NCBI GenBank assembly: GCA_964350605.1
Contig: CAYGKP010000002.1
Coordinates: 1 to 38,283, forward strand
Direction of reading: 5' to 3'
Source of the DNA: an uncultured Cytophagales bacterium
GTDB lineage: Bacteria; Bacteroidota; Bacteroidia; Cytophagales; JAAEPT01
DNA: 38,283 nt
Under the pieces are notes generated by a model. It worked only from the letters and a program-made list of their open reading frames with translations. It searched no databases and had not been told where the DNA came from. The translations under genes were made by a program, and so were the position numbers. Of this stretch, positions 2,236 to 21,598 are shown piece after piece. The stretch's first letter is position 1. Every line of letters starts with the position of its first letter.

Positions 2236-2773
2236 AAGCCTTGCGTTAGTTGGACTGCTGCTAAGCGCATTCTTGCTGGGATCTTGCGAACCAGGAAAGA
2301 TTGACTTGCGTGATGCACAAGAGTGGTCCGCTGAAAATGTTGAGGTGCTGGATCGAGAGAGCGAGGTGAGTAACTACCTGATCTCCTCCAAGTTCAAGCC
2401 TTGGTCAGAGGGAAGCGCCGGAGAGATGTTGTCGTTTCGCGATGGTGTTTACCAGTTTGAATTGACCTTCAAAAGGCGCAATGCGTCGGCGAACGAGTTT
2501 CGCTCGGACGACTACTACTTTCTCTTCGACCTACAGCAGGACATCGAGTTGAAGGTGGGCGAGCAGACCTACCCATGCACCATGTACCACATGCAAAGAG
2601 ACTATGGCTTGACTGGCTATAGTACCATTCACGTGGGCTTCGATCTGGGTGGCCCGCAAGAGGGTGACATGCAACTGATCATTACGCCTCGCCCTTTGCA
2701 AATCGGCTCAGTGAAGCTGGTTTACACCAAGGAGGACATGGCCAAAATCCCTGATTTAAAGAGCAATTCATGA
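2225..2773 (+). CDS. Lipoprotein, function unknown
   Basis: The ORF opens at 2195, but the ATG at 2225 gives MKNRSLALVGLLLSAFLLGSC, a signal peptide plus lipobox. It overlaps the upstream stop by 11 nt. Its own stop overlaps the next start in ATGA at 2770-2773. Confidence 0.7.
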   Translation: MKNRSLALVGLLLSAFLLGSCEPGKIDLRDAQEWSAENVEVLDRESEVSNYLISSKFKPWSEGSAGEMLSFRDGVYQFELTFKRRNASANEFRSDDYYFLFDLQQDIELKVGEQTYPCTMYHMQRDYGLTGYSTIHVGFDLGGPQEGDMQLIITPRPLQIGSVKLVYTKEDMAKIPDLKSNS

Positions 2774-5700
2774 AGCTGATACGTCGCAACCTTCGGTTGA
2801 TGGCCGCCTTTTTGGTGGTAGAGCTTCTGGGTGAAATGTTGGCACCTCAGATGGTGATGGCGTTGACCTCCGGGCCGACACAGCCGGAGGTGACCTCGTT
2901 TGAGCCGGTAGGCACCACAGAAATGGTGGACCTGTTTTCGGGAGACTTCACCTACAACGTGCCCTTGTTTGAATTACCTGGTCCGAACGGGGGGTACCCG
3001 TTCAACTTGGCCTATCACGGTGGGGTCACGATGGATCAGGAAGCCAGTTGGGTCGGCTTGGGTTGGTCGCTAAACCCAGGGGCGATCAATCGCCAGATGC
3101 GAGGGTTGCCCGATGACTTTAAGGAAGATACAATCAAAACCAAGTTTTCGATGAAGCCCCAAACGACAGTCGGGGTGAGTGCAGGTGTTGGGGTAGAGGC
3201 ATTCGGAAGTGATTTGTCGGGCTTGTATGCAGGAGGCAGCCTTGACTTACAGATCTACTACAATAACTACAAGGGGATCGGTTATTCGCTGGGCATTACG
3301 CCCAGCCTCGGCTATGGGTTTGGGGACGGCACGCCAGGTGTTGATGATTTTCTGGGTCTTGGGGTGAGTCTGTCTTTTGACTCTCAGGAAGGAGTTGGCG
3401 TTTCGCCAAGACTTTCTTTCAGTGGACAGCAGAAGAATGCGTACCGATCGTATTCAATCGGGTTTGATGTAAACTCACAAGATGGACTAGTTGGCCTTTC
3501 GCTTGGCACCACTGCCTCAAACACTGCGACTAGTAAGGACTCTGATTCACCCAGTTGGGCTAAAGGCTCAGGGTCTTACTCTTCTTCCTACAGCTTTGCT
3601 GCCATTGCCAAGACCCCTACGGTGAAAATGCCGATGGGAGGATGGAGTGCCAAATTGAACTTCGCTTTTGGGTTGGCCAACTTTGGCACATATCCGTACG
3701 GACGTGTAGGAGGTACTTTTTCCATTCAGCGACCCCAAAAGAGTGCTGTGAGCAAGCGTGCTTTCGGCTACCTGTACCTGCAGGACGATACGGATAACAA
3801 AGGCCTTTTGGACTTCGACCGCGAGAAAGACGGGGTAGTCTCGAAGGCGAGCCCGAATCTTGCCGTTCCTGTTTTGACCAACGATGTGTACTCGGTCACA
3901 GGGCAAGGGATGGCAGCGATGTACCGCCCCTATAGATCGGACATAGGCCGCATCAACGACCCGAGAGAAACTTCATTTACTGGCGGCGGTTCTTTGGGCT
4001 TGGAGTTTGGTGTTGGGCTAGGGGGGCATTTTGGCGGAGACCTTCAGATCTTCAGTCATTCGAGCAAGAGCGGGGTTTGGGAGACGGACCTTCACGAGTC
4101 GGATGTGGATTTCCAGGCCTGGAAGCCAGGTAGCCTCTTTGAGCCAGTGTACTTCCAGGCGTATGGTGAGCACAGCACTGATCCACTTAACGAATTGGAT
4201 CATATTGGCGGAACGACTGCCATGCGTCCACGGCTTGATAAATCAGGTTTGGCCTGGAAGGCCGAAAAGAAAATGGAACGTGGCTCGGGGGGAATCATCA
4301 CCCTGGCCCAGGGCCCTAAAGTGGTCAACGAGGAGAGGGCACCCCGATCAAAAGCCATCCAGCACTTCACCAATGAGCAGTTGGGCGGGGCGGAACTCGC
4401 TTTGCCCTTGTTTTCTGTTCCGTACAAGAACGAATCTGGTACCAAGAACTACTTAGACAGGGGCGATTACAAAAAGCACCACATCGGGGGCTACCAAGTG
4501 GTCAATGAGGAAGGGTTGCGCTATGTCTATGGCTTGCCTGCGTACAACAACAAGCAAGTTGAATGTCTTTTTTCGCTAGACCCCGGCACCAACAATCCTG
4601 GACCGATTACCACCAACTTCGGGGAGAAGAATGGCGAACCCAACTATGATGTCAAGCGCACCGATAAGTTCTACCAGCGCACCGAAACGCCCAGGTATGC
4701 ACATGCTTATTTACTAACCTCAATCGTTGGGGCAGATTACGTCGACGCTGATTACGATCCTGCCGAACCAGCAACCTGGGGTCCTTCAGAGGGTGATCAT
4801 GGGTATTGGGTGCGCTTCAACTACCAGCGCATGTCGACCGACTATAAGTGGCGTGCGCCGCTTTACGGCGCCAATTACATCCAAGGATACCGCACCACCC
4901 GAGGAGATGACAAAGGGTCATATGTGTATGGCGAAAAGGAGCTTTGGTACCTCGAATCAGTTGAGACCAGCTCACACATTGCTGTATTTCACACCTCTGC
5001 CCGCGAGGACGCACACGGCGCATCGAAGGAAGTAGCAACCTCAAGCTCTGATATTGACATGAGCAAGCACAGCTTCCGTTTGGACAGCGTTGAGCTCTTT
5101 TCAAAGAGAGCCCGTGAAGCTGATCAAGCTCCCATCAAGGTTGTGCACTTCAAGTACGACTATACACTTTGTAACGGAGTGCAGAACTGGACGGATCAGA
5201 ATGGTATTACCGATGGTACTGGTAAGCTCACGTTGCGCAAGCTTTACTTCACCTACGGTCAGAGCAATCGAGGCAAGCTGAGTCCCTACCAGTTTGGCTA
5301 TGGCAATGAAAACCCAGACTACAGCAGCCACCAATACGATCGCTGGGGAGGGTATCACCGCCTCGATTCCCTGGGGCATGGCAACTGGAATGCCCTGGAT
5401 TTCCCTTACACAGTTCAGTATTCCACTCTAGGGCCCGAAAGCCTCAAAGACAGTTTAGATAAGTACGCGGGTGCCTGGTCTTTGAAACAGATCACCCTGC
5501 CTTCGGGTGGCAAGATTGACGTCGAGTACGAGGCGGACGATTACGCCTTTGTCCAAGACAAGCCGGCCATGCAGATGATGAACGTATGGGTAGACAAATC
5601 CGACGGGAATGGGCCCGGCTCCAGAATCGTCCAGGGGAGACGCCGACTTTACTTCGAGTTGGAAAGTTCGCTATCAGCGGATGCGGGAGATGCTGAGCGA

Positions 5701-8700
5701 CTCAAGGAGGTCAACAAATACCTACGGGGCGTTGATCAGGTGTATTTCAGGGCACTGATGACGTTGAGGGAGGATGGCGACTTCCCAGAGGAGTACATAT
5801 CTGGGTACGCGAAGGTGAACCCCGACCAGACGAAGCGAGGCCTTTGGAGGGCTGGGGGCAGCGGCGTTTACACCCATGGCTACTTTGATGTAGAGCCTAT
5901 GAAAGGGAGTAAGGGGCGCAAGTACCATCCCTTCTCCTCTGGTGCTTGGCAGCATTTGCGCAGCGAACAGCCGTTGTATGCAAACCTAGGTGGTCGTTTG
6001 TACGGCGATGGTCAAGAGGATGAAGGCGAGAAGCTCAACAAGGCCCGCATCAACTCATTGATTGGCGCTATTCCAAACGCCATCAAAATGTTCAAGGACT
6101 TCAACGAGATCGCCAAGAATCGAGACTGGGGTGTGGACATCAAGCCCGAGCAGTCCTGGATTCGACTTTCGTGCCCCGACCAAATCAAGTACGGTGGAGG
6201 CCATCGTGTTCGTTCGATTGTGCTCACAGATGCATGGGATGAGATGACTGGCCAACAGTCTTCAAAGCAAGGTCAGTATTATGACTACACCATGGTCGAG
6301 CGGGGCAATGTGATCAGCAGTGGGGTGGCGACTTACGAGCCAATGGTGGGTGGCGATGAAAATCCTTTCCGACGGGGCAAAGAATACAGTGAGAGTAAGC
6401 TGCTGAAGACGAACAACAACTTGTTCTTCGAGATGCCAGTGAACGAGTCCTACTTTCCGGGTGCCACGGTTGGCTATCGGAAAGTGACTGTCAAGACACT
6501 CACCTCGCATCGGTTGGGGCTTCCACCGGAGGATGCTCAGAATTTGCCTACATCGGTTTCCGGCACAGGCGCCACCGTTCATGAGTTCTACACCGCCAAG
6601 GAGTTCCCGGTCATAGTCCAGGAGACGGCCATGAACGCCAAGCCTGACAAACCGTTCTTTTTCGGGATTCCCTTTGTGGGCTCGGTTAAGATCACAGGAC
6701 TTGCGGCCTCGCAGGGCTACAGCGTCGAGCTGAATGACATGCACGGCAAGCCCAAGCAGGTGAGTCACTACGCGCAGCGAAGCGATGGCACGATCTCCAA
6801 TGCACCGGTGAGCTACAGCAAGTACAACTACTTGTTCGAACAGGAGTTTTTGTCGGGCGATAGTTTGAATGTGCGCTATCGGCTCACCAACAAGGTGATG
6901 ACCCTTACGGGTGAGTATGTCAACGGTCAGGCGCAGAAGGAGGAGCGTCTGATGGGCGTTGACTACGAGTTCTTCTCTGACTTACGAGAGAACAAGGATG
7001 TGTCGACCAATACGCAGATCGGCCTGGGGGTTGATATCATTCCCGCGTTGTTTTTCCCGATTCCTATCCCCAGTGCGTGGCCTACTACGCATTATCAGGC
7101 AACCACGCTGCGCACCGCTGTGACCAATAAGGTCATCCATCGCTCGGGGATCATGACGGGCATGGAGGTGTACGACCGTGGGTCGCTAGTCAGGAGCGAG
7201 TACAAGTTGTTTGACGCCCTGACAGGGCGCCCGGTACTGACCGAGACGACTAACAACTACGACGCGCCGATTTACTCCTATAGCATGCCCGCGCACCTGA
7301 TTTATGATGGCATGGGACCAGCCTACAAGAACATTGGGTTGACTTTCACCGAAGATGTCTCGCCAGTCTCAAACAAGCCGGGCTACTATGCCATAACACC
7401 TGGCGTGGGAGCTACTTGGCAGAACCACCTGGTGCCAGGTGACGAGTTTGTGGTAAGCAAAGGAGGAGCACCGGTAGCCACTGGGCAGAAGAATGTTCGG
7501 GCAATCTATGAGGGGAAAAATGGATCAAACGATCCTGTATTCTTGTTTGAAGACGCCTTGTCATCCGAGGAAGATCTCAACTTCTTTCTCACCCGTTCGG
7601 GCCGCCGAAATCACCTTTCGGTCGATGTGCAGAGTGTAGTAGCGATGGAGGACCCGACTTCTGAAAGAGTAGAAGAATCGTGTACTACTCAAGTTGTTTT
7701 CCCAATTATTGATGGTGAGCGAGCCTATTTGAGCACGCTCCCGTCTGAAATTGCGCGCACGGTCAATGGAATAATGAATGCCTACAGGAATGAGAATATT
7801 GTAGACTGTGGGTGTGTAGACTCAACTGGGATTTGCAGCGGTTGTGATACGATTTACCCTGAAATTCTTTACCGTTTTACGGGACTTTTTCCGCCAGTTG
7901 ATTCTTTACTGCCAACACCACCAACCTATTATTGGTTGGCTAAGCTGAACAGTGAAAGCCACCACCAATACCAAAACGAATTCTATCCTCTGAGTCCTGA
8001 TTATCAGTACATACCCGTGATCTTAAGCTGCGAAGCTCTCGGAGATGATTGTGATGTATTCCCGGATGGTATTTTTTGGGATGATAAGCTGCACAAAGAC
8101 ACAGCTGCTTTCAATGTATCGCTAATGTCTAGCTTTGATTCCGTAATGAGTCGCTGGGTTTATGTCAATCGAGGAGGTGTTCTATTTGGGGGTAACAGTA
8201 TTCCAGAGGACTATGTGGAACGGCGGGCTGGAGGTGGTCCCATTCATCAAGACTTCGCAGTTTTCTTCGATGCAACTGATGGTAGAATTATACCGGTTTG
8301 GGAGATAGACAGCTTGTATGATCCATGGATCCCCAGGGACATGGGTTGTGGCATCAATACATACGATTCTACCTGTTATGCGTCCCTAGGTTATAATCAT
8401 GGACCACAGTCTAATTGGGGAGGGGAGGGAGTTCATTATAGAATGATTAAAACCAACGGCGACACGATTATCGCATTGCATGCGATTTCAGGGATCCCAT
8501 GGCGAACGTATTGGGAAACGGGTCCTTACCTGACATTAGACACAACAGATGTGGTTTCATCGGCGTACCTGGTTGATGACATCCTCTCTATCTCTGCGAC
8601 AACGTTTGATGATGCACATCCGCTGGATTTTGCTTCGCTGGACACGACCCAGCAGGTCAAGGCAGAGTTAGGCGACCGCCCGTTTTATCACTGGTCGACG

Positions 8701-10035
8701 GGGGAGAAGGGCACCTGGCGACCCGACGCGAGCTATACGTACGTGGATGCCCGCAGCCAAACCCCGGGCATGAACCTGAGCGTGGACGGGACGATGGATG
8801 ATGTTCCACTCTTCAACTTTGACGATCAACTGTTTACTCAATGCTACCCCAAGTGGCGACAGGTCAACACGATTACCGAGTACAGCCCCTTCAGCTTCGA
8901 ACTGGAGAACAAGGACATCTTGGATCGGTACTCTGCGGCACTTTACGGCTATGATGGGCAGCTCACCACTGCTGTGGCTGCCAATGCGCGCAACCGCGAG
9001 ATCGGCTACGAGGGCTTCGAGGAGTACACGGTTGGCCAAGCACTCGGTGTCGATAACCTTATGACTGGCAACCTGGATTTCCTGAGCCAGAGCCCTGGGG
9101 CTGTCAATCTGGAATCTTGGCAGAGCTTCGAAGTTCTCTCGGGCAATGACAGCCTGCTGATCCTGCCGATTCCCTACTCCTCAGCCGAAGGAATCGAACA
9201 GATCAAAGTAGCTGGTGCAAAGCTGGGCTCCGGCACCGAGAAGACGATTTGGGGTCAGTATGATGTCAGTTACATCGCCGAGCACCCCACTGATCCCCTC
9301 AAGAGCATTTGGGTACTCTCTGGCTTTGGCCATTCGGGTCTTTGGGCTGGACAAGCTTGGGTTCCTCAGTTAACCCCTGCTGACTTCAGTGTAAACGCTG
9401 GCGGCGGTGTTGGCATTTCAACTGTGGGTGCCCACACCGGGACAAACAGTTTGCGAGTAGCCACGTCAGTAAGCGTGCCTCAAAGCCGACTCTGGCCGCA
9501 AGCCGGTCAGCGTTACGTGGTGAGTGCCTGGATGCGTCCGGAGAGTGCCACTAGCCAGTTTATGGGCTACTCACAAGGAGTCACTGGTTATGTGGGCAAC
9601 GCACCAGCCTCAGTGACTTCAGGTGCGAAGGTGAATGTCTACGCATCGGACGGGGCAGCCCAGACTTGGACATTGATCGGCACGATCTCGCCAACAGGCG
9701 GGGTGGTAGAAGGATGGCAGCGCGTCGAAGGTGAGTTTGACATGCCTGCTGGTTACTCCAGAATCAGATTGGAGTTGGTTAGCCCCCAGATTGACGGGCA
9801 GTTTGCTGCCTCGCTGTGGGATGACATGCGAGTATTGCCTTCCGATGCGTCGATGCGAACCTACGTATACGACACCGAGACCCTCCGACTTTCGGCCACT
9901 CTTGACGACCAGAACTTCGCTACGCTGTACTTCTACAATGAGGCAGGGCAGTTATACCTCACGCAGAAGGAGACTTCCTCGGGGATTCGCACGATCCAGC
10001 AGTCGCGCGTTCACATGAAAGAAACCAACGAATAG
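2770..10035 (+). CDS. Giant (2,421 aa) secreted or anchored protein with SpvB/TcB-like N-terminal signature, Gly-rich beta region, Cys-rich insert, CBM-like beta-sandwich and terminal YD-like repeats
   Basis: Uninterrupted 7.3-kb ORF with a hydrophobic N-terminus. 'FSGDFTYNVPLFELPGPNGGYPFNLAYHGG...WVGLGWSLNPGAINRQMRGLPDDF' parallels the SpvB/TcB N-terminal signature (..LPLP..GRGg..P.L.L.Y.S...GLGW....I.R.T..G.P.Y). 'GTNSLRV...GQRYVVSAWMRPES...GWQRVEGEF...LWDDMRVLP' looks like a CBM4_9-type sandwich. The C-terminal 'YVYDTETLRLSATLDDQNFATLYFYNEAGQLYLTQKE' is YD-repeat-like. Confidence 0.88.
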   Translation: MKLIRRNLRLMAAFLVVELLGEMLAPQMVMALTSGPTQPEVTSFEPVGTTEMVDLFSGDFTYNVPLFELPGPNGGYPFNLAYHGGVTMDQEASWVGLGWSLNPGAINRQMRGLPDDFKEDTIKTKFSMKPQTTVGVSAGVGVEAFGSDLSGLYAGGSLDLQIYYNNYKGIGYSLGITPSLGYGFGDGTPGVDDFLGLGVSLSFDSQEGVGVSPRLSFSGQQKNAYRSYSIGFDVNSQDGLVGLSLGTTASNTATSKDSDSPSWAKGSGSYSSSYSFAAIAKTPTVKMPMGGWSAKLNFAFGLANFGTYPYGRVGGTFSIQRPQKSAVSKRAFGYLYLQDDTDNKGLLDFDREKDGVVSKASPNLAVPVLTNDVYSVTGQGMAAMYRPYRSDIGRINDPRETSFTGGGSLGLEFGVGLGGHFGGDLQIFSHSSKSGVWETDLHESDVDFQAWKPGSLFEPVYFQAYGEHSTDPLNELDHIGGTTAMRPRLDKSGLAWKAEKKMERGSGGIITLAQGPKVVNEERAPRSKAIQHFTNEQLGGAELALPLFSVPYKNESGTKNYLDRGDYKKHHIGGYQVVNEEGLRYVYGLPAYNNKQVECLFSLDPGTNNPGPITTNFGEKNGEPNYDVKRTDKFYQRTETPRYAHAYLLTSIVGADYVDADYDPAEPATWGPSEGDHGYWVRFNYQRMSTDYKWRAPLYGANYIQGYRTTRGDDKGSYVYGEKELWYLESVETSSHIAVFHTSAREDAHGASKEVATSSSDIDMSKHSFRLDSVELFSKRAREADQAPIKVVHFKYDYTLCNGVQNWTDQNGITDGTGKLTLRKLYFTYGQSNRGKLSPYQFGYGNENPDYSSHQYDRWGGYHRLDSLGHGNWNALDFPYTVQYSTLGPESLKDSLDKYAGAWSLKQITLPSGGKIDVEYEADDYAFVQDKPAMQMMNVWVDKSDGNGPGSRIVQGRRRLYFELESSLSADAGDAERLKEVNKYLRGVDQVYFRALMTLREDGDFPEEYISGYAKVNPDQTKRGLWRAGGSGVYTHGYFDVEPMKGSKGRKYHPFSSGAWQHLRSEQPLYANLGGRLYGDGQEDEGEKLNKARINSLIGAIPNAIKMFKDFNEIAKNRDWGVDIKPEQSWIRLSCPDQIKYGGGHRVRSIVLTDAWDEMTGQQSSKQGQYYDYTMVERGNVISSGVATYEPMVGGDENPFRRGKEYSESKLLKTNNNLFFEMPVNESYFPGATVGYRKVTVKTLTSHRLGLPPEDAQNLPTSVSGTGATVHEFYTAKEFPVIVQETAMNAKPDKPFFFGIPFVGSVKITGLAASQGYSVELNDMHGKPKQVSHYAQRSDGTISNAPVSYSKYNYLFEQEFLSGDSLNVRYRLTNKVMTLTGEYVNGQAQKEERLMGVDYEFFSDLRENKDVSTNTQIGLGVDIIPALFFPIPIPSAWPTTHYQATTLRTAVTNKVIHRSGIMTGMEVYDRGSLVRSEYKLFDALTGRPVLTETTNNYDAPIYSYSMPAHLIYDGMGPAYKNIGLTFTEDVSPVSNKPGYYAITPGVGATWQNHLVPGDEFVVSKGGAPVATGQKNVRAIYEGKNGSNDPVFLFEDALSSEEDLNFFLTRSGRRNHLSVDVQSVVAMEDPTSERVEESCTTQVVFPIIDGERAYLSTLPSEIARTVNGIMNAYRNENIVDCGCVDSTGICSGCDTIYPEILYRFTGLFPPVDSLLPTPPTYYWLAKLNSESHHQYQNEFYPLSPDYQYIPVILSCEALGDDCDVFPDGIFWDDKLHKDTAAFNVSLMSSFDSVMSRWVYVNRGGVLFGGNSIPEDYVERRAGGGPIHQDFAVFFDATDGRIIPVWEIDSLYDPWIPRDMGCGINTYDSTCYASLGYNHGPQSNWGGEGVHYRMIKTNGDTIIALHAISGIPWRTYWETGPYLTLDTTDVVSSAYLVDDILSISATTFDDAHPLDFASLDTTQQVKAELGDRPFYHWSTGEKGTWRPDASYTYVDARSQTPGMNLSVDGTMDDVPLFNFDDQLFTQCYPKWRQVNTITEYSPFSFELENKDILDRYSAALYGYDGQLTTAVAANARNREIGYEGFEEYTVGQALGVDNLMTGNLDFLSQSPGAVNLESWQSFEVLSGNDSLLILPIPYSSAEGIEQIKVAGAKLGSGTEKTIWGQYDVSYIAEHPTDPLKSIWVLSGFGHSGLWAGQAWVPQLTPADFSVNAGGGVGISTVGAHTGTNSLRVATSVSVPQSRLWPQAGQRYVVSAWMRPESATSQFMGYSQGVTGYVGNAPASVTSGAKVNVYASDGAAQTWTLIGTISPTGGVVEGWQRVEGEFDMPAGYSRIRLELVSPQIDGQFAASLWDDMRVLPSDASMRTYVYDTETLRLSATLDDQNFATLYFYNEAGQLYLTQKETSSGIRTIQQSRVHMKETNE

Positions 10036-10045
10036 ACCTGGAATC

Positions 10046-10741
10046 GTGAAGCGGCTAGTGATACAACAGGTTCTTTCTTTGGCGCTCTTCGCGGTGCCAG
10101 CGATATCTCACGCTCAGGACCTCCGAGCTGATTTGCAAGCTGCTTCGGATTGGTATAGCCGGACTAGTGGCTTCAGAGTGGACGGGCGAGTAAAAATGCT
10201 GGATGGTTCTGGTGTAGATCAATCTTTTATTCTTGTCCGCTCGGGCAATTCGATTTACACCAAGTTTTTCGGCTCCGAAGTATTGCTCAATGAGCAAGCA
10301 ATGATTTTGGCCGAGCCACTGAACCAAACAGTCGTCTATCAACCACTTAAGCCAGGGGAGTTCGAGAGGCAGCTTCGCAAACGAAAGTTAGAGTTGGTGG
10401 ACACCTCCATGCTGGCTGCTACAAACTATTCGGTTTCGTATTTGGGTGAGAGCAGCGGGCTTAAAACCTATGAACTCACGTATGTCTCTGGCGCGATCTC
10501 CAAGGCTTGGCTTTCGTTTCGCTCCAGCGACTCGTTTCTCACCAAGGTCGAGTACTCGACGGCCCCGGCGGTATCAGGCGGTCGAGCCTCTAAAGTGATC
10601 ATCAGCTACAGTTCGTCTGCTTTGTCAGCCACGGACGCGATGCTGCTCAATCGATCGAGAATCCTTACTGGAAGCGGTGGGGCAGTGGAGTTGGCACCAG
10701 CATACAGTGGTCACCATCTAATTGTTGCCAGCAATGAATAG
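10046..10741 (+). CDS. Small secreted protein between the two giant genes (possible adaptor/chaperone)
   Basis: GTG start 10 nt after the giant gene's stop. The signal peptide is (M)KRLVIQQVLSLALFAVPAISHAQ. The protein is 231 aa with a beta-rich composition. Its stop overlaps the RHS start (ATGAATAG, 10734-10741). Confidence 0.7.
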   Translation: MKRLVIQQVLSLALFAVPAISHAQDLRADLQAASDWYSRTSGFRVDGRVKMLDGSGVDQSFILVRSGNSIYTKFFGSEVLLNEQAMILAEPLNQTVVYQPLKPGEFERQLRKRKLELVDTSMLAATNYSVSYLGESSGLKTYELTYVSGAISKAWLSFRSSDSFLTKVEYSTAPAVSGGRASKVIISYSSSALSATDAMLLNRSRILTGSGGAVELAPAYSGHHLIVASNE

Positions 10742-13700
10742 GGCTCGCGCTATCCTACTGATGTTATCTGCGCTCGGGCTACAGCTCGCAGCGAAAGCAC
10801 AATCCTTGGACTACGGAGTTTCCTACCGACTCAGTAGCTCGCAGATTAGCGGATCATCAATGCTCAAGGCAGTCGAGCCTGTATTGGGTGAGGGCGAACT
10901 CTCTTCGCAAGGATATGATGTGATGGTACAGTTGCGTTATGAACGCACCTATGGCTTGGATATCGAAGCGGTAGCTTGGTGGAAGCAAGTGATTTATGTG
11001 GTGCGCTTTTATGATGAGACTGAGCTCTTGATCCGAGAGGATCAAGACACCCTTAAGCTAGACCACTCTGGCTCAGGCTTTAATTTTTCACCTGTTAATC
11101 TGTACCGTTCGGTTTCACGCCATGCTGAGCTTGAAATCCTTTCGACCAGTTCGCTTGGCAACCCGCCGCCGGATATCAATCTGGAGTTGGTGTTTTCTCC
11201 CCAGTATGAGCGAGCGGGAACGCTCACTGCGCCTGAGTTATTTGTTGACGGATCGGACTCTATCGTGAGTTGGAGTTATGTGATTGGTAGCGAAGGTTTC
11301 GAATTGGAGTGGGTGTTCATTGATTCAGAACACGAGTCTTTGGAAGTCATTAATTCTTCTAATGCGTTTGATTGGATTCGCCCTGTGCGCTTGGTTAGCG
11401 AGGAACAGCACCATTTCTTCAATGAGGCCCTGCCTGCAGGGACGGTGTATTTCCGGGTCAGGGGCCTCCGTGATGAATCGCAACAAGGTGAACGCGGTGT
11501 GTTGCAGGGGCCCTGGTCGAATGTGGCAAGTCTTGTGGTTTCGCCGGGTACGATGCTAACGGGCATCAACTGGCAGTCGGTGGTGAGTTATGCGGAACAT
11601 GGCCGCTCGAAGACATTGGTAACCTATTATGACGGTAGTCTACGCAACCGCCAAAGCGTTACTTCGTTGAGTACCGATTCGTTGACACTGGTTTCCGAGT
11701 CGGTTTATGATTATGAGAGCAGGCCCAGCATCAGCCTGATTCCCACACCCATGCAGGGAAGTCAGCTGTCGTTTCGACAGGGTGTTCATGCCTTTGAAGG
11801 CACAGAACCGGAGAACGAACGCCTTTATGACCGATACGACGGATCTGCACCGCTGAGCACGACCTCTAAAGTGGAATCGTATTATGGTGGGCAGTCTGGC
11901 ATTGAACAACTGAATGCCGATTTGCTGCCCCAATCAGAGGGTTATGCCTATGCCCAGACGGTATTCACCCCTGACGCAACGGGGAGGGTCGAGCGCCAAT
12001 CTATGCCCGGTGCACGCTTGAAGATCAACAGTGATGATGCGCCATTGGACAGCCTTCACTACACGCGCTTCTACTATGGTAAGCCAAGTTCAACCGAACT
12101 GCATCGTCTGTTTGGTTCGAATGTGGGTCTCTCCAAGCACTACACTAAGGAGTATGCGGTCGATCCAGATGGCCAAGTGAGCCTCACCTACAAGGACCAA
12201 GAGGATCGCGTGATTGCAACTGCGTTGACTGGTGAGGCGCCTGACAATCGTTTGCCGCTGGCCAGCTACCAGCCTGAGCTGAGCACCTTCAACTTGGATT
12301 CAGACAATCAGATCAATAACCTCACGGGTGTTTCGCATTCGGAAAGCAAGATTGTTAAAACCACTCCAGGCGATCAGCGCTACTATTTCTACTACGACTT
12401 GGAAGGTGTGATTCCCTCAGGGAATTCGGCGCTTCCTACCCTTTGTCGCACGTGTGGCTACTCGCTTCACATTCACATCGAAGACCCAGATGGTAAGGTT
12501 GTCTACGACACGTTGCGAGTGTTCCCTGCTACCCCCGAAGATCCCAATTGCGGGGTGGATACCGCTTTCACCCGAGAGCATAACTTTGACACTTTGTTCA
12601 CCAAGGTTGGAGAGTACACGGTCTCAAAGACTCTGTACCTGAATGAAGAAGAGATCTTTTCCACCTTCAGAGAGGTCCGTGAAAGTGCTGCAGTTGCACT
12701 TGATTCAGCGGGGCTCGTCGAGTCTTTTCTTGACCAACTCAATCCTTCACTTTGTGATGTTACCTGTGAGCAACACTGTTTGACCAAGGTCTATCGGGAC
12801 AACCCCACTTGGGACCCTCAATCTAGTTTGTGGGATAGCTTAGATCATTCTCAGCAGGTTGATAGCTTACTATTGGTCTGTGTAGAGGACACTTGCTACG
12901 GGGTGTTAGACTCCATCTTTGCCGAGGTAAGCGAGGCAGAATGCGAGGGAATGGAGGGCGCCATGTTGGGTCAACTCTACCCCGATGGGTATTGGAATAG
13001 CGAGGAACTTCATACAGCTGATGGCCATACACCTGTCTATTGGGCCAAATTAGATGGCGCTGTTTTTCTTGATTCTGTGGGCAACGTGCTGAGTCCTTCG
13101 CCACCGGATGCGAGTTTTTACGATTGGGACAAGTTTGTCCCTTCTTGGGCAGAGGAGTTGTTGCCTTATCATCCAGAATATTGCATTCATCAGAAGAGTT
13201 GCCTGCAAGCCGTGCCAGCCAAGGATTTTGCCCGCGAATTGATGCAGGTCAAATCGAAGTCGGCAGCCATTTTCAAGAACTATGATGAGATCAACGCGCT
13301 GCTCAACGCTGATGATTTCTTCAGCAACTCTAGCGCTTTGGGCTGGGGGAAACGTGGGGATATGGTCGACTACATGACCAGCTTCGTCGATGAGGATGAG
13401 TATGACACTGACTACAATGGTGACGGATATGAGGACAGCACCTTCACGATGTGGCGGTTTTTCGAGTTGGACTATCTCTACGAACTCTCTGACCCGGCCT
13501 TGCCACATAACTCCGCGACAGAGTGGGATATGTTCCGCGCGGCGTATTTGGCTTACCGTGAGGAGTTGTTGCAAGAGATTGTTGAGGATGAGGTCGCCTC
13601 AAATTCAGGCTGCGCATTCCAGAGCGGGGAGCATGCCCTCTTTCCCCAGCCTGCTTTTCCTAAGTCAGAGTCAGAGATCGATTCATTGTACCAACTCGAC

Positions 13701-16700
13701 ACAACTGGACAATGCGCCGAGCAGTGTGAGTTGAACGTACAAATCTGGATGCAGGCGCTCTTTGATAACGGTTGTTCGGACGGTGATTCCAGCTATTTCA
13801 CCACAGCTGATTCACTGACCATTGCTTCCAACCTGTTGTCCTTTTGTATGGATAGCTGCGATGCGTCAGGATTCTTGTCAGGAGCCCTTTGGCTTGATGA
13901 TAGTCTCTCAAGTGATTTAAGAATTGATTCAGTGATTACAGTTCTTTCAGGTTACCCTTGTGGCTGGTCTGACATAGGGACTGACCGTGATTTTTTCTGT
14001 TCGGGTCACACCCGGGAGTTAACATTCACAACGTATCAAGTCATTGATGCAATAAACGACATCGCAGCAGCGAGACGAGACTCCTCCGCAATCTATTCTT
14101 ACAGTACCTATTCGGGATTGGACACAGTGTTTTCCAACCATGTCTATGGTAACTGGGACCCATACAGCATTGTATGGAAATCATTCCTAGTGCCTACTAG
14201 CGAGATCCATAACTATGATCCACTGACAACTCTTTGCCCTGGAGTTGACAGTATAAGTCTAGTTGTTTACGATAAAGAAGATGTGACATATCCTTGGTGG
14301 TATACCTGTAGTGCAGATGCAAGTATGAGCGAGTATGAGTATCGATTACTTTTCTACTTTGATTCATTAGAAGCTAAGTATTATGAAATCAATTTTGTTG
14401 GCAGCAACCCCCAATGCCTAGCGGGGAGCAATCACTGCATACAGATAAGGTTTTTTACGCAGGATGCGCTTGGCTGCCATTACATTCCCAGAGATAGTAT
14501 TGTGGGAGTGAGGAATCCCAGAATTGACTTTGGATGTGAAGGTCGTCCTCCATGTCAAAGTGGTGAAGGGTTTCATTTGCACGATAGCAATTGGGACTGG
14601 GATAATCAGAGTGCTTCGTGCATTCTAACGGATGTAGAGCTTTCGAATGGCCAGATTATTACCACATATGTAACCACCACTGGATATGGTTATTGGGGTC
14701 AGCTTGATGTAAAGACAGATCAACTTGAGGTATCATTGGATACTTGTATCTTCAACGAAGAGAATTTTTCGTATCATTTGGATTGGCAAGCAACGCGAGA
14801 CTCCTGCATTTCTCAACAGCGAGAAGACTTGCTGCAAGAAGCTGAGGCTGCCTGGCAGGATACACTTCGAATTTGGAGTTCTGATTACGTTGAAGAGCAT
14901 TTTCGCTCGTGCATGAACGAACCTTTTGATGAGAGCTTCTACTACACAACAGAAGCCGGGGACTACCACTACACCCTCTACTACTACGACCAAGCAGGCA
15001 GTCTGACCCAAACGGTTCCGCCGGAGGGTGTGGATGTTTTGGGTAGTTCGGCTTTCAACACAAAAGGCGAGTACCAATTCTCGGTTGAGCCCAACCATCG
15101 CCTCAAGACGATCTATCGCTACAACAGCCTGGGCCAGTTGACCTACCAGAAAACCCCCGATGGCGGCGAAACGCGCTTCTGGTACGACAAGGCCGGCCAG
15201 CTGCGCCTCTCGCAGAACGCGAAGCAGGCGACTGAGGATCACTTCTCCTACACCAAGTACGACTTGCAAGGCCGCGTGGAGGAGGTTGGTCTGCTTGATG
15301 GCCTAGCCCTCGACTCGACGGCTCTGAGCGCGTATACGCCTGCCGTGTATGCCCTGTTGGACAACTACTCCTTCCCAGAGGAGCCGACTTATGCACTCAG
15401 CGAGCAGACGATTACCCATTACGACGATCCCTTTGGTGGCCTGATCGCGCAGAAGTATTTGCGCAACCGCGTCTCTGCTGTGGAGGTGTTCGACCACACG
15501 AGCACGCTGGTGAGCACGACGGCCTACAGCTACAACCCGCACGGCCATGTGGACCGCGTGGGGGTGAAGGTGGGCGATCTGCCGACGAAGGTGACCGAGT
15601 ATGACTTCGACCTGATCAGCGGGAACGTGAACGAAGTGCGCTATCAGCCGGGCGAGGCGGACCGCTTCTATCACCGCTACGAGTACGACGCGGACAATCG
15701 GATCGAGGCGGTGTATACCTCCAGAGACGGGTACATTTGGGACCGGGAGGCGCGGTATTTCTACTACGCGCACGGGCCGCTGGCAAGGGTCGAGATTGGG
15801 GAGTACAACGTGCAGGCGCTTGATTATGCGTACACGCTGCAGGGCTGGATCAAGGCGGTGAACATGCCGGGTGCATTGAGCGAGGAGACGGATGGGTTCA
15901 GCCGCGATGAGTTCGGGTATGCGCTGGGGTATTATGAGGGGGACTATACCCCGGCGGGCGCGGTGAACATGGGCAGCGCAAGCCAAGCGAATTTGTGGAC
16001 GGGCAACCCGGCGGGGCAGGTGCTGGGCGACGGACTGTTCACCGGGAACATTGCCTTCATGAACACGGACATCCGCCAGTATGACAGCATTCCAGGGGTG
16101 ACCGGGAAGGGCAACAAGCTGATGGCGTATCAGTATGACCAGTTGAACCGGTTGCGGCAGGGTACGTCGTTCAATGACTACACGGGCAGCTGGAGCACGT
16201 TGACGGGCGACCAGGGCGACATGGCGGCCACCTACGACGGGATGGGCAACATCTTGAGCCTGACGCGTGGGAATGGCGACAACTTCAGTTACAACTACAA
16301 CCGCGACGGGTCGAGCGAGCTGGTGAACAACAAGCTGCGGGGTGTGGGTGGACTGCATGGCAGCAACGCGACTAGCAACTACAGCTACGATGAGATTGGG
16401 AACCTGACTGCCGATGCGAGCGACACAATGCAGGTGGAGTGGACCGTATATGGTAAGGTAGCCAAGATCACTACGCCCGGCTCGACCACCGAATTCACCT
16501 ATGACGGCGCGGGCGAACGCGTTTCGAAAACCGTGACCAAACCTTCGGGTACGGTGAAAACCCAGTACGTCCGCGATGCCGCTGGCCAGCTTCTCTCGGT
16601 CTATATCGACGGTGTTCAGGAAGAGGTTCCGCTATACGGTTCGTCGAGACTCGGCGTTTGGAACCCGATGGCCCTGCGCGACACTTCCCATTTCACGGCC

Positions 16701-17930
16701 CAGCAGGGTGAGAAAAGCTATGAGCTCTCCAACCACTTGGGCAATGTGTACGTGACCCTATCGGACAAGAAGGTGGGGGTAGACTCTACGAGTGACGATA
16801 CCGTTGACTATTACTTAGCGGATGTCCTGAGTGTCCAGGATTACTACCCCTACGGCTCGACGGTTGATGGGCGTAACTCCTTTGGTGACTACCGCTTTGG
16901 CTTTAACGGCATGGAAAGGGAGGAGGAAGTGAACTCCGACAAGAGCGGCTATGACTTCGGCGCGCGGCTCTACGACTCGCGGGTTGCGAGGTGGTGGAGT
17001 CCAGATCCGTTGGAGGCGAAGTATCCAGCTTATTCACCCTATGTTTTCGCAGTTGGAAAACCAACAGTGTTTAAGGATTACGATGGAAGAGACATATATT
17101 TTGTCATCAACATAAAGCACTATAGCGAATTCAGTGATAAGGTTATTGAACATGAGTTGAGAATAAATATTTCTAAAATAAGTGACCCTGATGTTACTCT
17201 TAAAAAAGCCGAAGCGGAGTTAATGGGGCTGGGGATGTCTGAAGGCGAAGCACAGCAATTTTTTGACAATTACAGTGTAATACAGGATGTTAGGGATCTT
17301 CATGTAATGAACTCTTCACTGGGAACTTCACAGAATGATGCAAACGACCTCTGGAATATTGTAAACAGTAACTTGTTAGATATTGACGTGAATGTGGCAC
17401 GGGATGTTGCAGGAAATCCGAGAACACCTAGCGCGGCTGCAGGCACTGTAAATTGGTCAAGAAACTACCACACATCTGTTGAATTAAGTGATGGTTCAGG
17501 AACTTACCATTTCGCAGATGCTTTCACGCTAATCCACGAAGTTGGACACCTTCTGGAAGATTATTACAACTCATTAAGTTCTGAGCAGATTCAAGCAAAT
17601 GCTTATCTGGGTACTCTTCACACACTTATATCTCAATACAGAAATGAATGGAGGAAGCTAGTCCCAGATCTTGAGGACGAAGGCAATCCGTACAATGGTG
17701 AGTTTTATGGAAACCAAGAGCAAATCAGAGAATACATTGCCCAACGAATAGCTGGTCTGTTTGCAAGTGAGCAGTACGAATCAGGACTACCTAAGTACTC
17801 AGGATATCAGATACCGTTTTATTACCAGTATAGCGGCTTGCAAGATATCGGTAACCATAATCCCAGATTCTCCAATCACATTACAGATGATGGGACCGAC
17901 TTAAGAAAAGAGTCATGGTTAGAGCGATAG
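10734..17930 (+). CDS. RHS/YD-repeat polymorphic toxin (about 2,398 aa) with Sec signal peptide and C-terminal HExxH toxin tip
   Basis: The ATG at 10734 gives MNRARAILLMLSALGLQLAAKAQ, a signal peptide. 'LVTYYDGSLRNRQSV...VYDYESRP...AQTVFTPDATGRVERQSMPG' resembles the DUF6443-type module that precedes RHS repeats in Bacteroidota (from memory). There are many YD repeats between about 14960 and 16900, including YYYDQAGSLTQ, YRYNSLGQLTYQ, FWYDKAGQLRL, YEYDADNRIEAV, YQYDQLNRLRQG, YSYDEIGNLTA and FTYDGAGERVSK. The core ends with 'YDFGARLYDSRVARWWSPDPLEAKYPAYSPYVF...KDYDGRD'. Confidence 0.93.
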   Translation: MNRARAILLMLSALGLQLAAKAQSLDYGVSYRLSSSQISGSSMLKAVEPVLGEGELSSQGYDVMVQLRYERTYGLDIEAVAWWKQVIYVVRFYDETELLIREDQDTLKLDHSGSGFNFSPVNLYRSVSRHAELEILSTSSLGNPPPDINLELVFSPQYERAGTLTAPELFVDGSDSIVSWSYVIGSEGFELEWVFIDSEHESLEVINSSNAFDWIRPVRLVSEEQHHFFNEALPAGTVYFRVRGLRDESQQGERGVLQGPWSNVASLVVSPGTMLTGINWQSVVSYAEHGRSKTLVTYYDGSLRNRQSVTSLSTDSLTLVSESVYDYESRPSISLIPTPMQGSQLSFRQGVHAFEGTEPENERLYDRYDGSAPLSTTSKVESYYGGQSGIEQLNADLLPQSEGYAYAQTVFTPDATGRVERQSMPGARLKINSDDAPLDSLHYTRFYYGKPSSTELHRLFGSNVGLSKHYTKEYAVDPDGQVSLTYKDQEDRVIATALTGEAPDNRLPLASYQPELSTFNLDSDNQINNLTGVSHSESKIVKTTPGDQRYYFYYDLEGVIPSGNSALPTLCRTCGYSLHIHIEDPDGKVVYDTLRVFPATPEDPNCGVDTAFTREHNFDTLFTKVGEYTVSKTLYLNEEEIFSTFREVRESAAVALDSAGLVESFLDQLNPSLCDVTCEQHCLTKVYRDNPTWDPQSSLWDSLDHSQQVDSLLLVCVEDTCYGVLDSIFAEVSEAECEGMEGAMLGQLYPDGYWNSEELHTADGHTPVYWAKLDGAVFLDSVGNVLSPSPPDASFYDWDKFVPSWAEELLPYHPEYCIHQKSCLQAVPAKDFARELMQVKSKSAAIFKNYDEINALLNADDFFSNSSALGWGKRGDMVDYMTSFVDEDEYDTDYNGDGYEDSTFTMWRFFELDYLYELSDPALPHNSATEWDMFRAAYLAYREELLQEIVEDEVASNSGCAFQSGEHALFPQPAFPKSESEIDSLYQLDTTGQCAEQCELNVQIWMQALFDNGCSDGDSSYFTTADSLTIASNLLSFCMDSCDASGFLSGALWLDDSLSSDLRIDSVITVLSGYPCGWSDIGTDRDFFCSGHTRELTFTTYQVIDAINDIAAARRDSSAIYSYSTYSGLDTVFSNHVYGNWDPYSIVWKSFLVPTSEIHNYDPLTTLCPGVDSISLVVYDKEDVTYPWWYTCSADASMSEYEYRLLFYFDSLEAKYYEINFVGSNPQCLAGSNHCIQIRFFTQDALGCHYIPRDSIVGVRNPRIDFGCEGRPPCQSGEGFHLHDSNWDWDNQSASCILTDVELSNGQIITTYVTTTGYGYWGQLDVKTDQLEVSLDTCIFNEENFSYHLDWQATRDSCISQQREDLLQEAEAAWQDTLRIWSSDYVEEHFRSCMNEPFDESFYYTTEAGDYHYTLYYYDQAGSLTQTVPPEGVDVLGSSAFNTKGEYQFSVEPNHRLKTIYRYNSLGQLTYQKTPDGGETRFWYDKAGQLRLSQNAKQATEDHFSYTKYDLQGRVEEVGLLDGLALDSTALSAYTPAVYALLDNYSFPEEPTYALSEQTITHYDDPFGGLIAQKYLRNRVSAVEVFDHTSTLVSTTAYSYNPHGHVDRVGVKVGDLPTKVTEYDFDLISGNVNEVRYQPGEADRFYHRYEYDADNRIEAVYTSRDGYIWDREARYFYYAHGPLARVEIGEYNVQALDYAYTLQGWIKAVNMPGALSEETDGFSRDEFGYALGYYEGDYTPAGAVNMGSASQANLWTGNPAGQVLGDGLFTGNIAFMNTDIRQYDSIPGVTGKGNKLMAYQYDQLNRLRQGTSFNDYTGSWSTLTGDQGDMAATYDGMGNILSLTRGNGDNFSYNYNRDGSSELVNNKLRGVGGLHGSNATSNYSYDEIGNLTADASDTMQVEWTVYGKVAKITTPGSTTEFTYDGAGERVSKTVTKPSGTVKTQYVRDAAGQLLSVYIDGVQEEVPLYGSSRLGVWNPMALRDTSHFTAQQGEKSYELSNHLGNVYVTLSDKKVGVDSTSDDTVDYYLADVLSVQDYYPYGSTVDGRNSFGDYRFGFNGMEREEEVNSDKSGYDFGARLYDSRVARWWSPDPLEAKYPAYSPYVFAVGKPTVFKDYDGRDIYFVINIKHYSEFSDKVIEHELRINISKISDPDVTLKKAEAELMGLGMSEGEAQQFFDNYSVIQDVRDLHVMNSSLGTSQNDANDLWNIVNSNLLDIDVNVARDVAGNPRTPSAAAGTVNWSRNYHTSVELSDGSGTYHFADAFTLIHEVGHLLEDYYNSLSSEQIQANAYLGTLHTLISQYRNEWRKLVPDLEDEGNPYNGEFYGNQEQIREYIAQRIAGLFASEQYESGLPKYSGYQIPFYYQYSGLQDIGNHNPRFSNHITDDGTDLRKESWLER
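16687..16743 (+). repeat. RHS-core segment (..TSHFTAQQGEKSYELSNHLG..) that is duplicated downstream at 18666-18728
   Basis: Aligned by eye, the 39-nt core at 16703-16741 (gcagggtgagaaaagctatgagctctccaaccacttggg) matches 18689-18727 (gcagggagagaaaagctatgagctttccaatcacttggg) at 36/39 positions. In-frame peptides are 17/21 identical. Confidence 0.85.
17094..17927 (+). other. Variable C-terminal toxin domain of the RHS protein (about 278 aa, putative Zn-metallopeptidase)
   Basis: It begins right after the RHS core terminus (...DYDGRD, ending 17093). HEVGH is encoded at 17535-17549, followed by LLED. GC falls to about 32-33% in sampled lines (17101-17220), against about 60% in the YD-repeat region. 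There are no Cys residues. Confidence 0.6.
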
Positions 17931-18661
17931 TACTCGTAACATTTGTTGGTTTCTTGTTTAGTGGATGTGTCTCACCAAAGATTGAATCATTGACCTATCT
18001 ATCTGGTGACAGTGTATCTACATTAAGGGCTGGCATGCCGGCTATCGTACTATTGAGAACATCAGGTCTAGGTAAAAAGAGAGCCTCGGTCTCTTTTACT
18101 CGTTTGCCCAGAAAGCCTGTAATGGAGCTGTATTCTAGTGATCACGAGGTCTTAGTAGAATCTTCTGAGGGAATGTTGCCGATTATTCACGATGAAGAAG
18201 CAGGAGACACCCTATTCCTCAAGTCATCAAGCGGAAACGAAGTCTACGACTATTACCTGTTTTTCACTCTCCCTCGCGTTCAACAACCTTATCTATCGCT
18301 ATCTGTTGACAGCACCAGATCGTTTAATGGTGAAAAGGGCTTCATTACGAGATCTGATTACCTCAGCTTGAACGGAAAACTATCTTTTGACTACGATAAG
18401 ACGCTACAGGACCAATGCCCGAACATGTACTTCAACTTGAAATCGGTTAAGGTTTCGTTCAAGGATAATTTGAAAGTTGAGTTTGCTGATTTCAGGGTGA
18501 ACGATCTTAATAATACATTTAGCTGTGACGTTTCCTACCTATCTAGCTTCTTGCTTAAAGAGAAAACAAGATTTACGTTCTACGTAGAGTATAAGGTCGT
18601 CCTTGACTGCGGCTATGAATACACTCACACAGAGATGCTGCACGCTACATATTTCCCATAA
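17915..18661 (+). CDS. Lipoprotein, putative cognate immunity protein
   Basis: The start overlaps the RHS stop by 16 nt. MVRAIVLVTFVGFLFSGC is a signal peptide plus lipobox. It shares the toxin tip's low GC and sits in the canonical position immediately 3' of a polymorphic toxin. Confidence 0.65.
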   Translation: MVRAIVLVTFVGFLFSGCVSPKIESLTYLSGDSVSTLRAGMPAIVLLRTSGLGKKRASVSFTRLPRKPVMELYSSDHEVLVESSEGMLPIIHDEEAGDTLFLKSSSGNEVYDYYLFFTLPRVQQPYLSLSVDSTRSFNGEKGFITRSDYLSLNGKLSFDYDKTLQDQCPNMYFNLKSVKVSFKDNLKVEFADFRVNDLNNTFSCDVSYLSSFLLKEKTRFTFYVEYKVVLDCGYEYTHTEMLHATYFP

Positions 18662-18665
18662 TCCT

Positions 18666-18779
18666 ACTATCTCGCATTTTTCTGCCAAGCAGGGAGAGAA
18701 AAGCTATGAGCTTTCCAATCACTTGGGAGTAGGGGAAGATCACGGAGTGCCAGGATCACTTCTACGCTCGCAAAACTGA
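18666..18779 (+). pseudogene. Orphan RHS-core remnant (degraded, internally deleted)
   Basis: It starts right after the immunity gene's stop. The frame reads TISHFSAKQGEKSYELSNHLGVGEDHGVPGSLLRSQN*. A second short patch at 18745-18770 (gagtgccaggatcacttctacgctcg) resembles the 'SVQDYYPYGS' coding DNA at 16829-16859 (gagtgtccaggattactacccctacggctcg), but with indels. There is no start codon and no intact downstream toxin ORF. Confidence 0.65.
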
Positions 18780-18975
18780 TTCAACTGATCTTTCGATCAC
18801 TTCCGCAGCAATCATTCAATGTTTGCGTACGCATCCCCAAAAGATGCGTAGGGAATGGTAGGCCTCACCCCATCTTTCCCCTAGAAAACTGATTCCAGAC
18901 GTAGATTTCCAATCTTTACGAACGCGTCCGTAGTGTTTTAGCCACACTCATCGCCTCTTCATCGTCTCATTGGTC

Positions 18976-18995
18976 TTGTGTACAGATTGTGTACA
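18976..18995. repeat. Tandem TTGTGTACA-GA-TTGTGTACA, each copy containing the palindrome TGTACA
   Basis: Read directly as ggtc-ttgtgtaca-ga-ttgtgtaca-c-gacc. It lies in the noncoding gap about 190 nt upstream of the 19187 ORF. Function is unknown; it could be an operator-like site. Confidence 0.5.
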
Positions 18996-19186
18996 CGACC
19001 GAATCAATGGAGGAAATCGTTTCCAATGAATATTTGGTACATGAATCACTAGACACATGGTATCATTCGGCATCCATGAAATCTCATAGCATTTCATTTG
19101 CTACATTGGTTGTGCAGTGGTCCTGATGGGGTCGCAAATTTTGTTGGGGTGATTGTCTATCTTAATGCATGAGCTGATCGAGAAAG

Positions 19187-19618
19187 ATGGACTACACTAA
19201 GCTTGTTCGATTCGTAATTCTATCGCTTCTATTCTTTTCGTGCACTAAGAATAACGCTTCATACGTAAGAGTTAAGCACTGTGAATTGGAGTCTGGAAAT
19301 GTTCTGGGAGATGGAGCATATTTTGCAAGAATTAGTTATCCATCATCTAGTATAGATACTTTATCACTCCAGTTGTTTTCCGATCGCCTGGACACGATTA
19401 GTATTAGGTGTTATTCTGGAATGAATTTACCGTGTGCCATTGGATTCCAGGGAGTTAATAAAGAGAGGATTGCAGTTTTGATAAACTCAGATGAGGTCAT
19501 ACCATTTATCCTGGATGAAGAGTTTAGGAATATTCGTCTTCACTTTTATCCGGATGCGGGGAGTATCAAGTGTAATGTTGTGGCCTATGATAGGAATTGT
19601 ATTTCCCCGAGATATTAA
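19187..19618 (+). CDS. Small lipoprotein, possible orphan immunity protein
   Basis: MDYTKLVRFVILSLLFFSC is a signal peptide plus lipobox. The protein is 143 aa. It has very low GC like the toxin/immunity island and lies downstream of the RHS-core remnant. Confidence 0.55.
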   Translation: MDYTKLVRFVILSLLFFSCTKNNASYVRVKHCELESGNVLGDGAYFARISYPSSSIDTLSLQLFSDRLDTISIRCYSGMNLPCAIGFQGVNKERIAVLINSDEVIPFILDEEFRNIRLHFYPDAGSIKCNVVAYDRNCISPRY

Positions 19619-19789
19619 CTCTTTAAGATTTTTAATAAGTGCGGCGCATCACAAAGCCGGATAATCGGCCCCAAGTAGCCCCGCCCGACAACTAAACTGA
19701 CCCTTCCTGTCGATAGAACCGCCGAAGTCGGTACCTTCGCGCCGGATTCAACCTGCGCCAGTACACGCGCGCCCTTTCTCGCTCCCTAC

Positions 19790-21598
<1,809 letters not shown>

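Follow-up and report, generated by a model that had tools for sequence, protein, structure and literature searches.

Variable C-terminal domains (tips) that carry an HExxH motif are an established class among RHS proteins (PMC3482391). The described examples include the zincin tips Tox-MPTase1-5 and Tox-HopH1/Peptidase_M91 (Zhang et al. 2012, PMC3482391), and an RHS tip with an M91 domain, SED_RS06335 of Salmonella Dublin, has been shown to be antibacterial (PMC13556075). Another precedent is provided by the C-terminal domain of VgrG2b and by Tpe1-Tpi1, where an HExxH effector acts in the periplasm and is paired with a periplasmic or lipoprotein immunity protein (PMC6899460). Here we compare these systems with an RHS gene of an uncultured Cytophagales bacterium (assembly GCA_964350605.1). 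The stretch of DNA under analysis, hereafter the window, comprises 38,283 nucleotides (nt), namely positions 1 to 38,283 of the forward strand of contig CAYGKP010000002.1. The RHS gene (10734..17930, + strand) ends in a tip of 278 amino acids (aa) encoded at 17094..17927 (+), which is a genuine polymorphic-toxin tip and a candidate toxin domain. We favour, with moderate confidence, the interpretation that a Sec-exported RHS polymorphic toxin of Bacteroidota carries its exchangeable toxin domain here and that this domain acts as a zinc endopeptidase in the cell envelope.

The carrier protein is defined by several matches. From the ATG of the gene caller it measures 2398 aa (P0001), and the same open reading frame (ORF) spans 10722..17930 when opened at a mechanical TTG start. 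Its N-terminus (MNRARAILLMLSALGLQLAAKAQ) reads by eye as a Sec signal peptide. Pfam RHS_repeat matches the protein with an E-value of 1.3e-7 (32.2 bits, cut-off 22), and DUF6443 is recognised on an N-terminal fragment with 34.1 bits. The Rhs-associated core domain, the aspartyl-protease plug, lies at 16842..17087 (+; aa 2041-2122). NCBIfam Rhs_assc_core (TIGR03696) identifies it with 41.5 bits against a cut-off of 32.5, and the match ends two residues ahead of the tip (aa 2125). RHS/YD repeats followed by an Rhs-associated core directly before a variable tip are two marks of an RHS/YD-repeat polymorphic toxin, and both are found here.

With the core as query, 76 related loci were recovered in Bacteroidota (Chitinophagaceae, Saprospiraceae, and others), at 44% identity or less. 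The conserved core terminates in ...RLYDSRVARWWSPDPLEAKYPAYSPYVFAVGKPTVFKDYDGRD, with DYDGRD at 17076-17093. Related loci close their cores with IDLDGLE or DPDGRD, and DYDGR (17076-17090, +) fits their D[LP]DG[LR] variants. The first-pass annotation had described DYDGRD as the Bacteroidota variant of the core terminus, and the coordinates, the TIGR03696 match, and the variants in related loci all bear this out. DPxGL is the canonical cleavage motif of studied Rhs proteins (PMC8636562). By analogy with it, cleavage would fall at DYDGR|D, and the freed tip would probably begin at 17091, one residue ahead of the boundary given above.

Among the closest known systems for this carrier are the Rhs/TcC cocoon toxins with aspartyl autoproteolysis, such as Photorhabdus Rhs1 (PMC8636562). 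The two proteins have in common YD/RHS repeats, a C-terminal plug, two Asp-containing motifs ahead of the tip, and a variable tip, which here is presumably encapsulated as well. They differ in the cleavage motif itself (DPxGL in Rhs1, DYDGR here) and, by our count, in the distance between the two Asp motifs, which is 17 residues in Rhs1 and 19 here. Moreover, the N-terminus carries a putative signal peptide and DUF6443 rather than the PAAR- or VgrG-linked modules of the compared Rhs/TcC toxins, and a conserved partner gene of 2421 aa upstream sets the locus apart from the Rhs/TcC cocoon toxins.

Base composition sets the tip apart from the core. The content of guanine plus cytosine (GC) and its value at third codon positions (GC3) are 0.59 and 0.78 in the core versus 0.405 and 0.37 in the tip, in agreement with the earlier description of the tip as compositionally foreign. 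The switch occurs at approximately 17030-17050, roughly 50 nt upstream of the tip boundary. It opens a low-GC island of 2.6 kb (17040..19640, no strand assigned; GC ~0.39-0.45), whereas the RHS core and typA have a GC content of 0.59. Downstream of the island, typA begins at 19790 with host-like composition. The RHS gene is itself a mosaic in this respect: the N-terminal 1475 codons (10734-15158) have a GC3 of 0.53, and the repeat and core region (15159-17039) has a GC3 of 0.78, like typA.

Within the island, the tip is followed by an intact ORF of 248 aa (17915..18661, +) that overlaps the tip end by 16 nt. Its product starts with a lipoprotein-like N-terminus (MVRAIVLVTFVGFLFSGC), in which the lipobox was read by eye. 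This ORF is a candidate immunity gene for the tip. Just past it lies a 56-nt relic (18672..18727, +) that copies, with 86% identity, a segment of the RHS core (SHFTAQQGEKSYELSNHLG; 16686..16741, +) downstream of the cassette. The relic encodes SHF.A.QGEKSYELSNHLG as in the core, after which the reading frame breaks off, and we read it as the scar of an earlier tip displaced by the present cassette. About 460 nt lacking a convincing ORF separate the relic from a second small lipoprotein-like ORF (143 aa, ...LLFFSC...; 19187..19618, +), which may be an orphan immunity gene from the displaced cassette.

Because one low-GC island holds the tip, both lipoprotein ORFs, and a core relic, the tip and its immunity ORF look like a replaced toxin/immunity cassette. 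Replacement of an RHS tip usually leaves such a layout behind. In the proposed sequence of events, a cassette consisting of core end, tip, and immunity gene would have recombined into the conserved RHS core. Downstream of it, a stub of the former core end would have remained, perhaps together with the former immunity gene. Homologous cores elsewhere carry unrelated tips; together with the GC3 contrast and the relic, this identifies the tip as variable and exchanged.

Traces of rearrangement could also accompany a cassette that is decaying or inert, in which the tip would be a remnant without toxicity or a C-terminal extension of the RHS protein that serves some other purpose than toxicity. The core relic, the 460-nt non-coding stretch, and the orphan lipoprotein ORF would suit such a state, and no homologues exist to reveal purifying selection. 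However, the tip frame runs on continuously from the core for exactly 278 codons, and an open frame of this length has a chance of ~4e-9 at the tip's composition (40% GC). The downstream ORF is intact, and its overlap is typical of toxin-immunity pairs. The sequence is also identical in four samples of one study: this study, on biofilm metagenomes, is the only one with the locus and contains it unchanged in four runs, where read and contig mapping gave neither variants nor alternative joints that might have exposed selection or a switch of tips. We consider decay or inertness very improbable.

The case for a zinc peptidase starts from the motif. The tip contains one HExxH only, HEVGH at 17535-17549, followed by LLEDYY, and every coordinate previously given for the tip of about 278 aa and its motif was reproduced. 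HEVGH forms part of TLIHEVGHLL (17526..17555, +; tip aa 145-154), an extended zincin signature that we take to correspond to the PROSITE PS00142 pattern. Shuffling of the tip yields a bare HExxH in 2.4% of cases and the extended signature in 0.12%; among 289,454 background residues (ORFs of at least 150 aa from the related loci), the extended signature occurs once. H148 and H152 are proposed as zinc ligands of the tip, with E149 as the general base.

The third zinc ligand is less evident. On reading the sequence, the metzincin (HExxHxxGxxH/D), Wss1/SprT-type (His six residues past the motif), and aspzincin (GTxDxxYG) patterns are absent from the tip. The segment YGNQEQIREYIAQRI (17706..17750, +; tip aa 205-219) is a candidate third-ligand ('glutamate') helix, in which E209-x3-E213 falls on a predicted helix at 208-224. 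Assignment of E209 or E213 as the third ligand is speculative. In line with the earlier remark that this ligand is not obvious, the two glutamates are candidates only.

Related RHS loci provide a context for this motif. Among 44 complete related tips, about 10 match a Pfam family at E<=1e-3, including deaminases, CdiA_C, lipases, Tlde1/YkuD, M43, and M91. Around 80% of related tips have no recognised domain, and an unplaceable tip is the rule here. HExxH is present in 5 of the 44, compared with about one expected, and three of these five give sub-threshold Pfam matches to Peptidase_M91 or M43. Tips with HExxH thus form a genuine and frequent class within this clade of RHS proteins, which raises the prior for a zincin reading of the present tip. 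Likewise, the tip resembles the zincin RHS tips of Zhang et al. (PMC3482391) in its position after the Rhs-associated core, its length within ~200-280 aa, its single HExxH, its foreign composition, and the gene directly downstream. Taken together, motif and context make a zincin fairly probable.

In sequence searches the tip is a true orphan. Comparison of the tip, the immunity ORF, and the third ORF with Pfam, NCBIfam, and PADLOC gave nothing relevant, and phmmer of the same three against all ORFs of the 76 related loci gave no match. Against PDB sequences, neither the entire tip nor a core fragment of 112 aa gave more than noise, the sole match being PTPN9 (E 1.1). No hit emerged from a word-index search of 5.8 billion clusters at E<=1e-3 or E<=10, and an exhaustive phmmer against 1.84 billion representative proteins retrieved only the protein itself. 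No relative of the tip came from tblastn-confirmed scans that covered 185,579 species genomes and JGI metagenomes. The immunity ORF is likewise devoid of homologues and of any known Imm family in these searches. The tip had been described as not placeable in any family, and these results agree. Such a status is true but unremarkable, because only about 10 of the 44 related tips match any Pfam family. As a side observation, tip aa 41-61 (AELMGLGMSEGEAQQFFDNYS, 17214-17276) give a sub-threshold ubiquitin-associated (UBA)-like match when searched as a fragment (Pfam Ubiq-assoc, E 0.014). A three-helix motif that arose by chance is the probable explanation; a true match would be a hint that the target is eukaryotic.

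Motif-led searching offered another route to comparators. Metagenome contigs scanned for HE[LIVMF]GHx[LF]EDY yielded 20 loci from several families. Group A (L082, L083, L089, L094) comprises secreted proteins with ATxIHELGHALEDY[YF]NxL and, later in the chain, YSLKSPGEHFCESLSAY; it probably represents an undescribed gluzincin family. Group A proteins are also lipoprotein-like, share an invariant IIPMNFYATxIHELGHALEDY, and belong to no Pfam family. Group B (L081:1528-3231 and L098) consists of Phage_Mu_F fusions (E 1.5e-15). Their C-terminal HExxH domain is unrecognised by Pfam and finds its best PDB match in anthrax lethal factor (E 0.019), in an alignment that pairs HEFGHAVDDY and YGRTNEAEFFAEAF, that is, the HExGH and YG..E.FAE motifs. 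This MuF fusion looks like a lethal-factor-like toxin packaged by phage. The scan also returned two further HExxH families and clear chance cases, such as a trigger-factor-like protein.

These comparators raise the alternative that the tip is a highly diverged anthrax-lethal-factor-like zincin (MEROPS M34 / Tox-ALF-metallopeptidase), in which Y205 would be the catalytic tyrosine and E213 would supply the third ligand. The tip has the HExGHxxDDY-type active-site helix of such zincins. Its HEVGHLLEDY aligns with HEFGHAVDDY of lethal factor at 8 of 16 identical positions (BLASTP E 0.006 in a single comparison), ADAFT..HE.GH..EDY is common to the tip and the MuF-fused domain, where ADAFT also precedes the helix, and 22 of 78 residues agree with group A. 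Beyond the helix, a Tyr-Gly followed by a Glu-bearing helix may be a further likeness: a relaxed Y-G-x(5,6)-E-aromatic-hydrophobic-A-[EQ] pattern fits aa 205-219 and occurs in 2e-5 of shuffles, although it was relaxed after the sequence had been seen. The strict consensus of lethal factor and groups A and B, a Tyr followed after six residues by an E-F-F-A-E helix, fails on the tip. The Tyr-to-Glu spacing is off by one, several consensus positions differ, and the distance from HExxH to Tyr is 53 residues in the tip versus 35-38 in lethal-factor-like domains.

In profile comparison, hhalign of the tip with group A reached 94.5%. This value is discounted, since proteins that have the motif by chance already reach scores of 33-39, against 50-53 for group A and 44 for group B, which leaves a margin of only ~6-15 units. 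Similarity to these comparators is circular, since they were picked through the motif. With the 10-residue motif masked, hidden Markov models (HMMs) of the flanks matched the tip no better than shuffles (p 0.8 for group A; for group B combined with lethal factor, 0.29 after and 0.058 before the motif). The tip was also missed by an HMM built on the Tyr/Glu segment, and phmmer of the tip against PDB sequences did not list lethal factor. Membership in the lethal-factor-like group was attractive by eye and failed these unbiased HMM tests. It is retained as a lead only, and we judge it unlikely.

Several results, among them the flank and segment HMMs just described, weigh against an envelope-acting zinc endopeptidase. 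No peptidase family matched the tip in Pfam at E<=10, searched whole and as two fragments, or in NCBIfam at E<=1. This includes the Tox-MPTase1-5 and Tox-HopH1 (Peptidase_M91) profiles, models of which Pfam-A presumably holds. Zincin profile matches are weak in the other HExxH tips of related loci and missing in the present one; the search that missed it did give weak Peptidase_M91 matches for the HExxH tips of L008 and L023. As the tip has no homologues, conservation of the two histidines, the glutamate, or a third ligand is not readable. The motif can also arise by chance: the trigger-factor-like protein, a non-peptidase, contains the same 10-residue motif as the tip within EEIEHELGHLLEDY (L080:615-644, L096:4428-4457). 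Signal-peptide and lipobox assignments were made by eye only. Finally, there are no genes of a type VI secretion system (T6SS) or a type IX secretion system (T9SS) in the window.

Structural modelling did not settle the fold. AlphaFold2 single-sequence models reached a predicted local distance difference test (pLDDT) of 37.1 for the whole tip and 35.7 for aa 76-278, too poor to use, which counts among the adverse points as well. So does the Foldseek search against the PDB, in which the best E-values were 2.1-2.6 for these two models and the matches were noise containing no zincins. The Foldseek check proposed for the residues after DYDGRD has thereby been carried out and was uninformative, given E-values above 2 on models of pLDDT 36-37. 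Both low-confidence models place HEVGH in a helix. DSSP assignment of the fragment model gives a helix, three short strands (44-64), a helix at 66-84 that bears HEVGH, and then three or four helices. The minimal zincins are described with a strand-and-helix layout (PMC3482391), with which this predicted arrangement agrees; the agreement carries limited weight.

These points also bear on the possibility that the tip is a genuine toxin and not a peptidase. In that case HExxH would be coincidental, or would serve another activity that is metal-dependent or non-enzymatic; the tip could, for example, be a nuclease, could hydrolyse lipids or glycans, or could form pores. The lack of a zincin profile match even at the loosest threshold, the lack of fold evidence for a zincin, the frequency of a bare HExxH in such sequences, the motif in the trigger-factor-like protein, and the predominance of related tips outside known families, which makes unknown activities common, are all in line with this alternative. 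On the other hand, chance seldom produces the complete extended signature, a predicted helix preceded by strands bears the motif, and HExxH tips are enriched about fivefold among the related RHS proteins. A non-peptidase toxin is rather unlikely in our assessment, and we retain the zinc peptidase as the preferred reading. Of the original proposal of a metallopeptidase toxin, the toxin-tip position, the foreign DNA, and the zincin-like context of HExxH stand; the metallopeptidase fold is putative, and a profile match is missing.

If the tip is a zinc peptidase, its action can be outlined by analogy. The RHS shell would enclose the tip, and the aspartyl protease of the core would cut at DYDGR|D, as Rhs/TcC biology suggests (PMC8636562). 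After delivery to a competing cell, the tip would act as a zinc-dependent endopeptidase, as indicated by its motif, with H148 and H152 binding zinc and E149 serving as general base; the third ligand would be E209 or E213, glutamates that lie on a helix further along the chain. The lipoprotein immunity protein would bind the toxin and block it in the envelope or periplasm.

The proposed model for the present pair is the C-terminal domain of VgrG2b and Tpe1-Tpi1 (Wood et al. 2019, PMC6899460), an HExxH antibacterial effector with a periplasmic or lipoprotein immunity protein. By this analogy, the tip probably acts in the cell envelope, and its target is most likely found in the envelope or periplasm because the immunity protein is lipoprotein-like. 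For the present tip, the site of action derives solely from the lipoprotein-like N-terminus of the immunity protein. The carriers also differ, a T6SS VgrG spike there and an RHS protein with a Sec signal here, and no sequence relationship connects the two systems.

Should the peptidase activity hold, the tip would add an unclassified and apparently lineage-restricted family to the metallopeptidase toxins of bacterial competition. An envelope target, as the lipoprotein nature of the immunity partner suggests, would belong to a class that is still poorly defined for peptidase effectors. More tentatively, and with odds that we place below even, the tip and its lipoprotein partner may form a new zincin-like toxin/immunity family, with no relative among ~15 billion predicted proteins, that is directed at an envelope target in Bacteroidota and relies on a Sec-exported DUF6443-RHS carrier and its conserved, uncharacterised 2421-aa partner instead of a T6SS. 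A single further unclassified HExxH RHS tip is expected and not surprising, and the tip is notable mainly as a complete sequence orphan. In broader terms, the diversity of RHS tips in Bacteroidota falls mostly outside current domain libraries, as seen for ~80% of the tips sampled.

Upstream of the RHS gene, the 2421-aa protein is encoded at 2770-10035 (+) with a GC3 of 0.60. In 17 or more of the related Bacteroidota loci, the gene immediately preceding the RHS gene encodes a homologue of the C-terminal 600 aa of this protein (E 1e-43 to 3e-9), which suggests that the two genes form a conserved two-gene module. The uncharacterised partner may be involved in delivery. Its identity as a TcB/SpvB-type partner, suggested by an N-terminal motif, is not claimed, given that Pfam provides only a weak DUF6531 match near the N-terminus (E 0.003). 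Concerning export, NCBIfam gave no match to a T9SS C-terminal sorting domain. The other genes of the window are ordinary chromosome; they include OmpH-like genes and genes for cytochrome oxidase and alternative complex III. An ORF of 181 aa (10196-10741, +) follows the 2421-aa gene and overlaps the start of the RHS gene; it has no Pfam match, and a single weak relative of it occurs in the related loci (L013, E 4e-9).

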